In this document: positions 3,561 through 12,026 of the stretch, in pieces
How the letters are laid out: the number at the start of each line of letters is the position of its first letter
Numbering within the stretch: position 1 is the first letter of the stretch
Source of the DNA: a virus
Strand: one strand, 5' to 3'
IMG/VR virus record: IMGVR_UViG_3300031565_005162
DNA: 12,026 nt
Position numbers and translations under genes: made by a program
The notes under the pieces: model-generated
Database searches by the model: none
Told to the model about the DNA's origin: nothing
The model's input: the letters and a program-made list of their open reading frames with translations, nothing else

Positions 3561-3644
3561 TGACCATAGGGAGAGTCGAACTCCCACGTCCTTTCGAACA
3601 CCAGCCCCTCAAGCTGGCGCGTCTACCAATTCCGCCATATGGCC
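3561..3644 (-). tRNA. tRNA-Leu(GAG), class II
   Basis: Reverse complement GGCCATATGGCGGAATTGGTAGACGCGCCAGC-TTGAGGG-GCTGG-TGTTCGAAAGGACGT-GGGAG-TTCGACT-CTCCC-TATGGTC-A. It has a 7-bp acceptor, D-arm, anticodon loop UUGAGGG (anticodon GAG, G37), long variable arm and T-arm. Confidence 0.85.
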
Positions 3645-3749
3645 TTATTTTTTCTTTCGGTCGAAAAATCCATTAGCATGGAGAGAAATAGTACCAAATA
3701 CTATAACTGCTAATAATATCATTCCTCCAAGGACATATAATGCTTCCAT
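3645..3749 (-). CDS. 34-aa hydrophobic micro-ORF (MEALYVLGGMILLAVIVFGTISLHANGFFDRKKK), single predicted TM helix
   Basis: Its ATG overlaps the TAA stop of the upstream 100-aa ORF in a TAATG arrangement (translational coupling). Its stop abuts the tRNA-Leu 5' end. It lies below the ORF-track size cutoff. Confidence 0.3.
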   Translation of the reverse strand: MEALYVLGGMILLAVIVFGTISLHANGFFDRKKK

Positions 3750-4051
3750 TATTTCTGAAGTTTTCTTTTCTTAATTCTTTCAAGTAATAAAGGTCTATAC
3801 CCTAAATCTCTTATCGCAATAAGCATTGCATTATGTTTCCTGTGAATAGCTTTAGCGATTGATTTTGTAGCATATGAATCCTCCCATACACCATCTTTAC
3901 ATAAGCGAACAATATATCGATCATTGAGTTTTAATAATTTAACTCGTTGAGAGATTTTCTTAAGTAATCTGTTTCTATTTTTCACCCTCCTCTTCTTAAG
4001 AAATAATTGAACTTGCTTTGGCAATTTCTTGATAAATTTCTTATTTTCCAT
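3749..4051 (-). CDS. small highly basic protein (100 aa, K/R-rich), putative nucleic-acid-binding
   Basis: Minus-strand ORF between two tRNA-Leu genes; about 30% Lys+Arg; no recognisable catalytic motif. Confidence 0.45.
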   Translation of the reverse strand: MENKKFIKKLPKQVQLFLKKRRVKNRNRLLKKISQRVKLLKLNDRYIVRLCKDGVWEDSYATKSIAKAIHRKHNAMLIAIRDLGYRPLLLERIKKRKLQK

Positions 4052-4067
4052 GGTCTTTTTATTTTAG

Positions 4068-4149
4068 TGCCCTCGGTGGGACTCGAACCCACACTCCCGA
4101 AGGAACTGGGTTTTGAATCCAGCGCGTCTACCAGTTCCGCCACGAGGGC
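4068..4149 (-). tRNA. tRNA-Leu(CAA), class II
   Basis: Reverse complement GCCCTCG-TG-GCGGAACTGGTAGACGCG-CTGGA-TTCAAAA-CCCAG-TTCCTTCGGGAGT-GTGGG-TTCGAGT-CCCAC-CGAGGGC-A. Anticodon CAA with A37; long variable arm. Confidence 0.85.
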
Positions 4150-4182
4150 TTTGTTCAGTCTATATATCTCTATTATCAAATT

Positions 4183-4220
4183 CATAAAAAAAGGGAAAGA
4201 CCTGTCGACTGCTTTCCCTT
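4183..4220 (-). terminator. strong rho-independent terminator ending the GC-rich RNA block
   Basis: Minus-strand sense AAGGGAAAG-CAGTCGACAGGT-CTTTCCCTT followed by TTTTTTT (plus-strand stem 4191-4199 and 4212-4220; A-run 4185-4192). It sits at the 3' side of the ORF-free block as read on the minus strand. Confidence 0.6.
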
Positions 4221-4499
4221 TAGTTCTCTTGCTGCAACGCTCAAAGACTGAGATAGCCTTGCAAGTCCCATCGCTCTTGCATCGATGTTAGATTTTTAGG
4301 ATGTAACCTAACGGAAAACCCCCATTTACCCATAGGTGGAACTGCTTGACCCTGCAGTGGGTGCATTTTAAATAAGGCTGAGCGACGGGGGATTTTAACC
4401 CCGCACCTACTTTTCGTATGCATCTTACTAAGTAGGGCCGGCTATTTCGTTATGCCGGCGTTAGCCCGTGTAAATTTGAATTCGAGAAACACGAAAGAG

Positions 4500-4725
4500 T
4501 GTTTTCTGGAGATCTCGGAAGATCTCGTTGCTACGGCCGCCATAAATCGTACTTTTTCGGGCCCCAACCGAAGTTGAGTTTAACCATCCCATATGAACGA
4601 CATCGAGCTGGTAAGTTTATCTCAGAGAGAGTGTATGGAAGGGCTATTAACCACATCCGCGTATACCAATCGTGGAGAACCTCGCGGTTCCCGGTACTAC
4701 CTTAGGACCATTATATTCGAAGTAT
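4500..4725 (-). ncRNA. LSU rRNA domain IV/V-like fragment (miniaturised peptidyl-transferase-region-like)
   Basis: Minus-sense TATAATGGTCCTAAGGTAG (plus-strand 4697-4709) matches the 23S approx 1900-1914 region TATAACGGTCCTAAGGTAG 18/19. About 90 nt further 3' is a colinear series against E. coli 23S 2498-2600: CTCGATGTCG (plus-strand 4598-4607) - TCAT..TGGG - AAAGT.TACG..TTTA - CGT.G..A.GAGA..TTC.G. In real 23S these two regions lie about 600 nt apart; here about 95 nt. Confidence 0.4.
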
Positions 4726-4771
4726 CTCTTAGCTTACTACGAATTCAATATTTTAAAGAACGTTTTATTAG

Positions 4772-4824
4772 TGTCCAAGGCAGGATTCGAACCCATAGTA
4801 GCCAGTCTTCTTCTACTCTCGGAC
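4772..4824 (-). ncRNA. tRNA-like minihelix (acceptor stem + T-arm, no D or anticodon arms)
   Basis: Minus-sense GTCCGAG-AGTAG(aagaagactgg)CTACT-ATGGG-TTCGAAT-CCTGC-CTTGGAC-A. It has a 7-bp acceptor helix with one G-U and a canonical T-loop TTCGAAT, but the T-stem is weak (two G-U pairs and a mismatch). Confidence 0.3.
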
Positions 4825-5099
4825 AGTAGCCGGCGAGATTCTGCAGGATCTGCCGGTTTCCCTTACGGTTTTCAAGACCTAAAGACTAAGTTCAGCCTAG
4901 GCCATTTAATGTAGAAAAATGGCTCAAACTCTGTAGACAATATAGGATTCTACGGAACTGTTGGCCTATATAGGAGCCAACCCAACCTCTGATTGTTATG
5001 GAAAATCAGTAATACCTTAGTTTGATGTGGTGCATACTAAAAAAGACCTCCGGCAGGTCCGGTAACCCCATGAACCGCATGGACGGTGAATTCTTTTTG

Positions 5100-5145
5100 C
5101 ATCATTTGGGGGTTCGAACCCCATTAACCCTAATTGTTAATGATA
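5100..5145 (-). ncRNA. second tRNA-like minihelix (acceptor stem + T-arm)
   Basis: Minus-sense TATCATT-aacaattagggttaa-TGGGG-TTCGAAC-CCCCA-AATGATG. It has a 7-bp acceptor-like helix with a terminal U-G and a perfect 5-bp T-stem with a TTCGAAC loop. The T-arm core GGGGTTCGAACCCC is palindromic, so strand assignment is by context only. Confidence 0.3.
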
Positions 5146-5178
5146 TAAAAGGCTGAGACTATACCTCTTGCGCTAGTA

Positions 5179-11052: not shown

Positions 11053-11074
11053 CTTTAATGGTTATATTAAGTTG

Positions 11075-11156
11075 TGCCCTCGGAGAGACTCGAACTCTCA
11101 CTCCTCTCGGAACCAGATCCTAAGTCTGGCGCGTCTACCAATTCCGCCACGAGGGC
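11075..11156 (-). tRNA. tRNA-Leu(UAG), class II
   Basis: Reverse complement GCCCTCG-TG-GCGGAATTGGTAGACGCG-CCAGA-CTTAGGA-TCTGG-TTCCGAGAGGAGT-GAGAG-TTCGAGT-CTCTC-CGAGGGC-A. Anticodon UAG, G37. Confidence 0.85.
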
Positions 11157-11167
11157 AATTATATCTG

Positions 11168-11250
11168 TGGGTAGAGGAGGATTCGAACCTCCGAACTCTT
11201 ACGAGACCAGATTTACAGTCTGGCGCCATTAACCACTCGGCCACCTACCC
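11168..11250 (-). tRNA. tRNA-Tyr(GUA), bacterial type with long variable arm
   Basis: Reverse complement GGGTAGG-TG-GCCGAGTGGTTAATGGCG-CCAGA-CTGTAAA-TCTGG-TCTCGTAAGAGTTC-GGAGG-TTCGAAT-CCTCC-TCTACCC-A. A class II Tyr tRNA is a bacterial or organellar hallmark. Confidence 0.85.
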
Positions 11251-11385
11251 AGTTTAATAATTTGTATTCTATAATTTCAAAGTACGTTTCTGAAGGAGAT
11301 ACCTCATAAACATCATTTAATTCAAAAACCCGAAGACTCATAATATCTTCGGGATTTCCTTTTAATATTCGTTCTCCTAATTCCA

Positions 11386-11664
11386 TTATTTTATATGAGA
11401 CATAAATTCTTTTCCGGATTTACATTTTCTACAAAGAGATTCTAAACGATCAAAACGATCTTGGTTTGTTTCTCCTTTTTGAAAATCAAGCCATTTAGAA
11501 ATGATTTTGGATTGGATCTTTAGTTCAGCTGAATCATTAGAAAAAGCTAATTCCAATCTTTCTCCAGATCTTCCAACAGAGAATTTTAAACTTGCTCCAG
11601 AAGGAAATTTAGCACTGAGAGACATTCTATCAAATCCATTTACTCTTTTTACTTTAGTTTCCAT
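11386..11664 (-). CDS. hypothetical protein (92 aa) with C-terminal CRKCKSG Cys cluster
   Basis: Minus-strand ORF. A TATATTTG (TAnnTTTG-like -7 element) lies about 30 nt upstream of its ATG on the minus strand, and the tandem repeat lies further upstream. Confidence 0.45.
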   Translation of the reverse strand: METKVKRVNGFDRMSLSAKFPSGASLKFSVGRSGERLELAFSNDSAELKIQSKIISKWLDFQKGETNQDRFDRLESLCRKCKSGKEFMSHIK

Positions 11665-11734
11665 TTTTAGTTCTTTTGGTTACAAAGCAAATATACTAAA
11701 AATTTCCATAATAAAAAAATATTTTATCAATTTA

Positions 11735-11784
11735 GATATTTTTTTCCACTATAACTAGTATTTTTGATATTTTTTTCCACTATG
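11735..11784. repeat. tandem direct repeat, 2 x approx 20 nt (AGATATTTTTTTCCACTATA and TGATATTTTTTTCCACTATG), 30-nt period
   Basis: Read directly at 11735-11754 and 11765-11784, between tRNA-Pro and the 92-aa gene. A candidate operator or promoter duplication. Confidence 0.6.
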
Positions 11785-11797
11785 TCAATGAACTTTG

Positions 11798-11871
11798 TCG
11801 GAATAAGAGGACTCGAACCTCCGACCCCTTGCACCCCATGCAAGTGCGCTAGCCAACTGCGCCACATTCCG
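11798..11871 (-). tRNA. tRNA-Pro(GGG), bacterial type (C1-G72)
   Basis: Reverse complement CGGAATG-TG-GCGC-AGTTGGCTA-GCGC-A-CTTGC-ATGGGGT-GCAAG-GGGTC-GGAGG-TTCGAGT-CCTCT-TATTCCG-A. Anticodon GGG, G37. C1-G72 is the bacterial ProRS identity element. Confidence 0.8.
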
Positions 11872-11877
11872 AAATTG

Positions 11878-11960
11878 TCACCGGTACGAGGGTCGAACTC
11901 GTGTTTCCACCTTGAAAGGGTGACGTCCTAAGCTTACGCAACCAACTAGACGAACCGGCG
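11878..11960 (-). tRNA. tRNA-Glu(UUC)-like with enlarged D-loop containing a GCGTAAGC (GNRA) mini-hairpin; possibly atypical or a pseudogene
   Basis: Reverse complement CGCCGGT-TC-GTCT-AGTTGGTTGCGTAAGCTTAGG-AC-G-TCACC-CTTTCAA-GGTGG-AAAC-ACGAG-TTCGACC-CTCGT-ACCGGTG-A. It shares the scaffold of the tRNA-Glu at 9919-9990 but carries about 10 extra nt in the D-loop. Confidence 0.5.
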
Positions 11961-11970
11961 GTAATAAAAT

Positions 11971-12026
11971 TGAGGCCCAGACAGGACTCGAACCTGCACC
12001 CTCCTGTAAAGGACGAGGGAGCTCAC
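11971..12026 (-). tRNA. partial tRNA (3' portion only; 5' end beyond the window), identity undetermined
   Basis: Reverse complement ..CCCTC-GTCCTTTACAG-GAGGG-T-GCAGG-TTCGAGT-CCTGT-CTGGGCC-T. Clear T-arm and acceptor 3' strand. The anticodon region is non-canonical as read: a 5-bp stem with an 11-nt loop, or a 7-bp stem with a CCTTTAC loop. Confidence 0.45.

Follow-up and report, generated by a model that had tools for sequence, protein, structure and literature searches.

A GOLLD RNA, a tRNA-like minihelix and a candidate second structured RNA in a probable phage tRNA island

GOLLD RNAs are among the largest and most enigmatic RNAs of bacteria and phages. Weinberg 2009 and Morgado 2020 reportedly place them in phage or prophage tRNA islands. 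Processing at tRNA-like elements is familiar from other systems: mammalian RNase P cleaves MALAT1/mascRNA, and a ‘tRNA punctuation’ model describes mitochondria. The occurrence of GOLLD in phage or prophage tRNA islands is published (Kretsch 2025, PMC12286853; Behra 2019, PMC6582537; PMC5737381), and one member, GOLLD env-38, was seen by cryo-EM in 2025 as a homo-oligomeric 14-mer forming an RNA-only nanocage (PMC12286853). A further GOLLD is described here in the IMG/VR virus record IMGVR_UViG_3300031565_005162 (12,026 nt, the whole stretch analysed, hereafter the window), where it lies in a tRNA island at positions 3,561–12,026. This region is very probably an RNA-gene module of a large phage, made of a one-directional tRNA array, interleaved small conserved open reading frames (ORFs) and some genes for RNA-related proteins, GOLLD, a tRNA-like minihelix and a second structured RNA named RNA-2, with a host that probably belongs to the Flavobacteriales. 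GOLLD in a phage tRNA island is a finding of an already known kind; the minihelix and RNA-2 look new, and neither is described in the three papers cited above. A preliminary description of the window, made from the letters alone, had presented the region as a tRNA island interleaved with micro-proteins and overlooked its largest non-protein feature, the 909-nt GOLLD RNA, together with the further structured RNAs. Coordinates below are those of the window unless stated otherwise, and all features lie on its minus strand.

The locus exists in several natural versions. A 26.4-kb metagenome contig (ERZ27256834 k141_3561727) matches the window with 99.9% identity; contig L202 is identical to the window, and near-identical pieces occur in at least five other samples. 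Diverged versions are carried by L200, L209 and L210 and by L208; all covariation counts given here compare three sequence variants of one phage lineage, namely the window, L200 and L208. Inside the array lies an ORF-free, GC-rich block of ∼2 kb (6086–4185). It falls within the longest stretch between tRNAs, from the gene of a 586-aa protein to tRNA-Leu(CAA) (6172–4150), which has no ORF of at least 65 aa on the gene strand and a GC content of 0.44–0.48, compared with ∼0.33 in the neighbouring genes.

GOLLD occupies the upstream part of this block. Its conserved 3′ core (5630–5150) matches the complete Rfam covariance model RF02032 (model positions 1–416 of 416) with 163 bits, above the gathering score of 150 (E = 1.3e-44), and the L200 variant scores 157.6 bits. 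The Rfam model spans only the conserved 3′ half of GOLLD. The variable 5′ domain (6058–5631) covers ∼430 nt, is ORF-free and can be aligned among the three variants back to a hairpin at ∼6058; thus, the gene is ∼909 nt long (5150–6058), as expected for a GOLLD of at least ∼800 nt in which a large structured 5′ domain is the less conserved part. Of the 146 pairs predicted in the 5′ domain, 45 have both sides changed among the three variants; the domain also resembles the 5′ domain of the GOLLD in locus L125 (nhmmer). The RNA ends with CUCAGCCU at 5157–5150. The linker of GOLLD contains a tRNA-like module (5486–5557), which scores 39.4 bits with the Rfam tRNA model and is called by ARAGORN at a relaxed threshold only. 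Its anticodon loop has 8 nt, its T loop is non-canonical and without U54, and its stems covary. Six other GOLLD loci were examined with Rfam. Every one of them lies among closely packed tRNA genes of the same strand on a viral contig and has a tRNA match at the same internal position. A comparison of linkers (loci L090, L141, L125, L094 and L079) reveals 8-nt loops and anticodons that are implausible or at odds from one embedded element to the next (Asn-AUU, a class I-sized Ser-GCU, Arg-UCU and Gln-UUG). Probably, the linker element is a structural tRNA-like module rather than a decoder. Other GOLLDs, too, lie beside tRNA genes in phage or prophage DNA and commonly hold a tRNA in their linker, a setting that this locus shares.

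Immediately downstream, starting 4 nt past the GOLLD 3′ end, lies a 47-nt element named minihelix 1 (5099–5145). It consists of a 7-bp acceptor-like stem (UAUCAUU/AAUGAUG), a T-arm (UGGGG-UUCGAAC-CCCCA), a discriminator C and a conserved 15-nt linker (AACAAUUAGGGUUAA), with neither a D arm nor an anticodon arm. Among its 12 pairs, seven are changed on both sides yet stay paired across the three variants; 92% of the cells are paired as against ≤50% in every slid control, and none of 500 shuffles reaches the observed value. Thermodynamic stability of the element is unremarkable. Minihelix 1 does not fold into the cloverleaf of a canonical tRNA, since only 15 nt separate the acceptor strand from the T-arm. 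Searches for hidden or degenerate tRNAs in 5150–4190 (relaxed ARAGORN at ps75–90 and in intron mode; Rfam at E up to 10) returned none, with the exception of the GOLLD-embedded element. An ordinary tRNA on the same strand starts 11–223 nt past the GOLLD 3′ end in 9 of 13 other GOLLD loci; the unrelated locus L141 has an acceptor/T-arm element there, with 72 nt of non-tRNA sequence as its core. Because the minihelix sits in the slot where other phages carry a full tRNA, 3′-end processing of the RNase P type is suggested. Acceptor/T-arm minihelices are sufficient substrates of RNase P, so that minihelix 1 would keep just what cleavage needs. By analogy with mascRNA downstream of MALAT1, we infer that minihelix 1 would define the GOLLD 3′ end through cleavage by RNase P and possibly by RNase Z.

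The second structured RNA of the block, RNA-2 (4374–4747, ∼375 nt), is a candidate recognized by covariation among the three variants. Its length is 373 nt in the window, 314 nt in L200 and >428 nt in L208, with a middle part that varies. Strongly conserved blocks are found at the 5′ and 3′ sides, with a closing helix UGAAUUCG/CGAAUUCA, one GNRA-capped stem and a terminal GCUCAGCCUU. The consensus fold comprises 81 pairs, 14 with both sides changed; 91% of the cells are paired, compared with ≤45% when the alignment is slid, and 0/500 shuffles reach the observed value. Indel lengths in the conserved blocks are not divisible by three, and no reading frame is preserved among the variants. No Rfam match appears at E up to 10 (searched over 4150–5200), which excludes ROOL (RF03087), tmRNA, RNase P RNA and the other Rfam families as assignments. 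A partial duplicate of GOLLD was also rejected, similarity being confined to the upstream motif and the terminal 9-mer. Relatives of RNA-2 were sought widely. Exact-block scans gave chance matches or nothing in IMG/VR, the same lineage only in metagenomes and one chance match in the genomes of 185,579 species; a nhmmer profile and a covariance model found nothing significant in ∼2.3 Mb of related loci. RNA-2 therefore qualifies as a candidate for a new structured RNA, and a single phage lineage is all that it is known from so far.

GOLLD and RNA-2 are flanked by similar signals. The motif ACGTTCTTTGAATATT lies directly 5′ of GOLLD (6070–6086) and a second copy, ACGTTCTTTAAAATATT, lies 5′ of RNA-2 (4747–4763). 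The consensus ACGTTCTTT(A/G)AA(A/T)ATATT precedes both RNAs in all three variants (in L200 at 13925 and 14929, and likewise in L208), and looser copies occur elsewhere in the tRNA array. The motif is either a promoter or a processing signal; as a promoter enriched over the whole contig it was rejected, with 6 copies against 2.7 expected at three mismatches, which is not significant. Three copies of the octamer CTCAGCCT are present in the window, always on the gene strand, against 0.25 expected, and 0/200 shuffles reach this number. One copy lies in the GOLLD 5′ domain (5960–5967), one at the GOLLD 3′ end (5150–5157) and one at the 3′ end of RNA-2 (4375–4382); a role as a processing or contact motif common to the two RNAs is conceivable. 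Since the upstream motif and the terminal CUCAGCCUU are common to both RNAs, RNA-2 is probably expressed and processed alongside GOLLD.

The remainder of the block is less conserved. Between minihelix 1 and RNA-2 lies a non-coding insert of ∼330 nt (4768–5098, GC 0.45), with a terminator-like hairpin at 5060–5044 and a putative second minihelix at its 3′ end. The insert is absent from the L200 and L208 types and found only in the strain cluster of the window, where it is invariant. Minihelix 2 (4772–4824) was noticed from a match to the T-arm motif; its minimum free energy (MFE) fold closes an acceptor-like stem (GUCCGAG/CUUGGAC; z = −1.9) above a weak T-arm with a UUCGAAU loop, and it ends just before the upstream motif of RNA-2. 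RNA-2 is followed by a GC-rich, non-coding and strain-specific tail of 189 nt (4186–4373), which ends with a strong intrinsic terminator (GGGAAAG...CUUUCCC followed by U7, 4218–4186). Neither insert nor tail has detectable relatives outside the strain cluster.

In a rapidly changing tRNA array, such elements might be debris. Minihelix, insert, RNA-2 and tail would then be decayed tRNA genes and spacer left by turnover, and not functional RNAs. Orphan T-arm motifs are what a decaying tRNA leaves behind, and the array does carry degenerate tRNAs, such as an atypical tRNA-Glu described below; the lack of relatives of insert and tail, the restriction of RNA-2 to one lineage and the unremarkable MFE z-scores point the same way. 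Decay does not account, however, for a minihelix kept paired through seven double substitutions while its flanks diverged to ∼75% identity, or for the 14 pairs that RNA-2 keeps through double substitutions. Nor does it fit the long invariant loop blocks of RNA-2, its GNRA-capped stem and its conserved closing helix around a middle of variable size. No remnants of tRNAs turn up in RNA-2 with relaxed ARAGORN or with Rfam, and the GC content of 0.44–0.47 in a background of 0.33 is that of bona fide RNAs. Collectively, this makes decay an improbable explanation.

A third tRNA-like candidate lies elsewhere in the island. In the 267-nt spacer that follows tRNA-Leu(UAA), a 163-nt element (10672–10835), recognized by its fold and by a sub-threshold match to the Rfam tmRNA model, begins 5 nt after the tRNA. 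An acceptor-like stem (GGGCCUG/CAGGUCC) closes the element, inside which four hairpins and a canonical T-arm (GCAG-UUCGAAU-CUGC) are formed; the MFE is −55.1 kcal/mol (z = −3.5; 0/200 shuffles are as stable). Its 5′ end, GGGCCUGAUCCUUG, resembles the 5′ ends of tmRNAs. Assignment as tmRNA (RF00023) fails: the score is 10.7 bits against a cutoff of 47, ARAGORN -m makes no call and a tag reading frame is lacking. The element is not a conserved RNA either, for it is absent from the diverged strains L210 and L208.

A scheme of expression can be proposed from this anatomy. The array would be transcribed one way as long precursors, in which host RNase P and RNase Z would cut at every tRNA and tRNA-like minihelix (‘tRNA punctuation’), releasing the tRNAs and trimming the large RNAs to defined ends. 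Minihelix 1 would be the 3′-end maker for GOLLD, in the slot of the full tRNA of other phages. GOLLD, by homology only, would assemble into an RNA-only nanocage, and RNA-2 would be expressed and processed alongside it. The island tRNAs would keep phage translation going when host tRNAs are limiting or cleaved. It is tempting to go further and to propose that RNA-2 founds a new class of phage RNA that works with GOLLD and that tRNA islands use minihelices as RNase P/Z ‘punctuation’. This extension is tentative, and we would sooner expect it to fail than to hold; if true, it would provide a bacterial-virus counterpart of MALAT1–mascRNA processing.

The tRNA genes themselves largely bear out the preliminary description, which had listed at least nine tRNAs, all on the minus strand. 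ARAGORN calls eight complete genes with exactly the anticodons listed there, and a ninth gene is cut by the window edge; seven of the eight exceed the 29-bit cutoff of the Rfam tRNA model, with scores of 52–62 bits. These are tRNA-Leu(GAG) (3560–3644; 51.9 bits), tRNA-Leu(CAA) (4067–4149; 56.2 bits), a canonical tRNA-Glu(UUC) (9918–9990; 61 bits), tRNA-Leu(UAA) (10841–10927; 58.1 bits), tRNA-Leu(UAG) (11074–11156; 60.7 bits), tRNA-Tyr(GUA) (11167–11250; 61.6 bits) and tRNA-Pro(GGG) (11797–11871; 56.4 bits). The bacterial identity elements pointed out earlier are present: the 84-nt tRNA-Tyr is of the class II bacterial type and tRNA-Pro(GGG) has C1–G72. The distinction between a canonical and an atypical tRNA-Glu(UUC) also stands. 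The atypical gene (11877–11947) is called by ARAGORN and scores 28.3 bits, just under the Rfam cutoff; its acceptor stem has one mismatch and three G·U pairs, its D stem only 3 bp, and it is absent from strain L199. It is probably degenerate. Of the partial gene (11972–12026) the window holds the 3′ part; the identical contig L202 has the class II tRNA-like gene whole, with 89 nt (9518–9606). ARAGORN labels it ‘His-GUG’; since the anticodon loop (GAGUGAG) lacks U33 and the discriminator is U73, it is not a credible tRNA-His. Independently of these calls, the T-arm motif GGTTCRANNCC occurs nine times against 0.11 expected. With eight tRNAs in 8.5 kb, the region is a dense co-oriented cluster with bacterial features, as in phage accessory tRNA islands.

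The array extends beyond the window. Upstream, the parent contig carries tRNAs for Cys, Thr, Gln (two), Arg and Pro (UGG), as well as one further class II gene; ARAGORN finds 14 tRNAs in total on this contig, all on one strand, and the array is put at at least 14–15 tRNA genes. Strains of the same phage have unlike tRNA sets, with six Leu tRNAs in L208, and one slot holds Leu-GAG in L199 and an atypical class II gene plus a degenerate Glu in the strain of the window. Such accessory, quickly changing content is expected of a phage module and not of a housekeeping operon. The earlier picture of protein genes wedged between tRNAs with spacers of 0–35 nt holds at several junctions: 3 nt between the gene of a 144-aa protein and tRNA-Glu, 33 nt between tRNA-Glu and a radical-SAM gene, 15 nt between tRNA-Leu(CAA) and a 100-aa ORF, and 10 nt between tRNA-Tyr and tRNA-Leu(UAG). 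Other gaps measure 132 nt, 267 nt and ∼2 kb, however, and the longest stretch (6172–4150) is structured RNA without a protein gene. As for the micro-proteins, part of the small ORFs are conserved, namely those of 92, 54, 53 and 51 aa, which show no stops or gaps in the diverged strain L210, but others are strain-specific (100, 66, 57 and 52 aa) or overlap tRNA genes. The 92-aa ORF (11386–11664; 83% amino acid identity in L210) is called as a gene in public contigs, and the 51-aa ORF (10418–10573) is 71% identical in L210 without gaps. The 100-aa ORF (3749–4051) is basic and has no homologue in other strains. The 57-aa ORF (11213–11386) overlaps tRNA-Tyr by 38 nt and the 53-aa ORF, which starts with GTG (10940–11101), overlaps tRNA-Leu(UAG) by 28 nt; the extents or the reality of these two are therefore doubtful.

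The set of island tRNAs was compared with the codon usage of the contig's 26 genes, in which GC3 is 0.24. The phage's own most-used codons UUA, CUU, GAA, UAU, CCU and CCA are decoded by island tRNAs. Within their amino acids, TTA has a share of 0.38 (read by Leu-UAA), CTT of 0.31 (Leu-GAG, with two copies on the contig), GAA of 0.82 (Glu-UUC), TAT of 0.85 (Tyr-GUA), CCT of 0.41 (Pro-GGG) and CCA of 0.38 (Pro-UGG). The match of the tRNA set to heavily used codons thus concerns phage genes only. The tRNAs might just as well serve to replace host tRNAs that defence nucleases have cleaved.

The 586-aa protein upstream of GOLLD (6173–7933), an accessory of phage tRNA islands with a helical N-terminal domain and a C-terminal TerD-like β-sandwich, bears on this question. 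Homologues lie within same-strand tRNA arrays of several large IMG/VR contigs from unrelated phages, and the cultured Synechococcus phage S-CRM01 has a family member, g174, between tRNA-Glu and tRNA-Pro. The protein is also 64–69% identical to proteins on multi-megabase chromosomes of Flavobacteriales (Chryseobacterium, Tenacibaculum and Winogradskyella), where the homologues adjoin RtcB, with RlaP; genes for a WYL regulator, a PrfH-like protein and RNase T are found near these homologues in one genome each. The island could accordingly be conceived as mainly a counter-defence device, in which replacement tRNAs and an RNA-repair-associated protein oppose host anticodon nucleases, a proposal that overlaps with the phage RNA-gene module described above and differs in purpose. 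It draws on the double occurrence of the 586-aa family, beside the RtcB, RlaP and PrfH-like RNA-repair genes of Flavobacteriales and inside phage tRNA arrays, on a jumbo-phage review that links phage tRNAs and RNA-repair genes as adaptations (PMC7824862), on the heavy over-representation of Leu isoacceptors (four in the window, six in L208) and on a rapid tRNA turnover between strains, as an arms race would produce. However, the contig encodes neither an RNA ligase nor a polynucleotide kinase/phosphatase nor a CCA-adding enzyme, and the 586-aa gene is dispensable, being absent from the L200-type strains (L200 and L210). For the protein itself, a predicted TerD-like fold is all that is seen, and the match of the tRNAs to the top codons of the phage is already predicted by supplementation alone. 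Counter-defence as the main purpose is rather unlikely.

The identity of the host rests on the same protein. Because of its 64–69% identity to Flavobacteriales chromosomal proteins, the host is probably a Flavobacteriales (Bacteroidota) bacterium, and the homologues beside RtcB are read as a clue to host and function, not as a sign of a chromosomal island. The sequence TANNTTTGC, which is like the −7 promoter element of Bacteroidota, was observed in eight copies against 2.35 expected, all on the gene strand (330, 1148, 2081, 3095, 6112, 9175, 10358 and 11687); only those at 6112–6120, upstream of GOLLD, and 11687–11695 are intergenic. These copies may lend weak support to a Bacteroidota host.

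Several points weigh against the phage RNA-gene module as proposed. The terminator-like hairpin at 5060–5044 and the strong terminator at 4218–4186 both lie within the array, which consequently is not a single transcript, and co-transcription and RNase P/Z processing are deduced from anatomy only. Covariation comes from only three variants of one lineage, with the RNA-2 structure derived from the same sequences. MFE z-scores fail to separate these RNAs from coding controls, which reach −1.7 to −2.7 and are as low as GOLLD (−1.7 and −2.6); thermodynamic stability is therefore uninformative as evidence of structure. Codon supplementation is consistent with the data but unproven, the comparison being with phage genes alone. 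Finally, most contig genes are ORFans, and a search of the 26–30-kb contigs for terminase, capsid, portal or integrase genes, the hallmark genes of a phage genome, found none.

The absence of phage structural or packaging genes from the recovered contigs would suit a mobile tRNA array on a bacterial chromosome or plasmid, of the sort that carries GOLLD in Mycobacterium. GOLLD-bearing tRNA arrays do exist in bacterial chromosomes (PMC6582537), and the 586-aa protein has close homologues on Flavobacteriales chromosomes. These homologues, however, are found in ordinary RtcB neighbourhoods and not in tRNA arrays. All other detectable protein relatives are in phages or in IMG/VR viral contigs, several of them of 130–735 kb, and no RNA-2 block occurs in the genomes of 185,579 species. 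Moreover, all genes of the contig have one direction and most are ORFans; among them are a 5′–3′ exonuclease and a glucosaminidase, both typical of phages, besides a gene for a Band-7/flotillin protein. At the DNA level, GenBank phages provide no relative beyond one tRNA-sized match, tRNA-Leu(GAG) (3560–3644), which is 92% identical to a tRNA of the 735-kb phage LR756501. A chromosomal or plasmid origin is thus very improbable, and the array is of the phage type suspected from the outset, as judged from homologues of three island proteins in phage genomes, from the match between tRNAs and codons and from tRNA turnover between strains.

The other proteins of the region fit a phage setting to various degrees. 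Two island proteins have 17 and 54 viral loci in IMG/VR, the latter number being that of a 335-aa radical-SAM protein (8877–9884; phrog_24834, PHROGs E = 1e-148), which is 64% identical to a protein of Bacteroides phage Versailles that is not located beside tRNAs. Its cluster motif is GCSMGCKFC. Matches to RlmN/Cfr have E ∼1e-6, and the best reaches 27 bits against a cutoff of 290; since only the cluster-binding region aligns and the NCBIfam equivalog score is not attained, assignment to RlmN/Cfr was rejected. Members of that family would also show a conserved Cys pair beside the CxxxCxxC motif, but at the place of the upstream methyl-carrier Cys the alignment has a different residue. The radical-SAM protein may nevertheless be an RNA-modifying enzyme. 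A 144-aa phage protein (9994–10428) belongs to phrog_4182 (PHROGs E = 4e-37). A 126-aa homologue of the SiaC family of regulatory phosphoproteins (8132–8512; Pfam PF09345, E = 1e-32) was noted within the phage tRNA island, with 57% amino acid identity in sister strains.

Outside the island, ∼1 kb downstream of the GOLLD/RNA-2 block, an 819-aa protein (976–3435) contains Vault_3 and MVP_shoulder domains, and the Band-7/flotillin protein lies upstream on the contig (parent contig L199, 1654–3264). The 819-aa protein is a homologue of major vault protein (MVP), with Pfam scores of 87.9 bits for PF11978 (cutoff 25) and 42.1 bits for PF17795 (cutoff 28.8). Homologues of 50–52% identity exist in phage genomes of 462 kb and 735 kb, one of which also gave the only DNA-level match, the tRNA-Leu mentioned above. 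A vault homologue beside the RNA block is striking given the GOLLD cage. In the two huge phages, there is neither GOLLD nor tRNA within 20 kb of the homologue; a conserved link between vault homologue and GOLLD was accordingly rejected, and the adjacency is treated as incidental.

A tRNA island such as this one is nothing unusual in a large phage. The locus offers three diverged natural GOLLD variants with clean flanking anatomy. Each variant has a repeated upstream motif, a covarying minihelix at the expected mature 3′ end and a second RNA with the same flanking signals. This makes the excision of GOLLD from tRNA-array transcripts, as well as the RNA partners of GOLLD, simply testable. In addition, phage tRNA islands and the RtcB RNA-repair loci of bacteria are connected by the uncharacterised 586-aa family with its TerD-like C-terminus.

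Comparison with described systems places the locus closest to the GOLLDs (RF02032) of phage and prophage tRNA islands, with which it shares a 3′ core above threshold, a variable 5′ domain, a tRNA-like element in the linker and a same-strand array. It differs from published GOLLDs by its lineage, which is new and probably that of a Flavobacteriales phage known from metagenomes, by the minihelix that replaces the downstream tRNA and by the second structured RNA that follows with the same flanking signals. As in the 33-tRNA cluster of S-CRM01 and the sets of jumbo phages (PMC7824862), tRNAs are dense and co-oriented, small ORFs are interleaved and phage codons are matched; the 586-aa family (g174) is likewise inside the S-CRM01 cluster. 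In contrast to S-CRM01, where the stretch examined has no annotated GOLLD, Leu isoacceptors are strongly over-represented here, and not all members are true tRNAs, several being tRNA-like.

RNA-2 is like ROOL RNA (RF03087) in its niche in a phage tRNA island and as a multi-helix RNA with GNRA loops; it is unlike ROOL in giving no match at E up to 10 and in its size (314–430 nt versus ∼580 nt). The minihelices and the 163-nt element share with tmRNA and the bacterial Y-RNA YrlA an acceptor stem and a T-arm without an anticodon arm; they differ in that a tag reading frame, a tmRNA call by ARAGORN and a nearby Ro/TROVE protein are all missing. Found in a phage, devoid of D and anticodon arms and comparable in function only, minihelix 1 would finally resemble the element of MALAT1/mascRNA, a tRNA-like acceptor/T-arm structure immediately 3′ of a long non-coding RNA.

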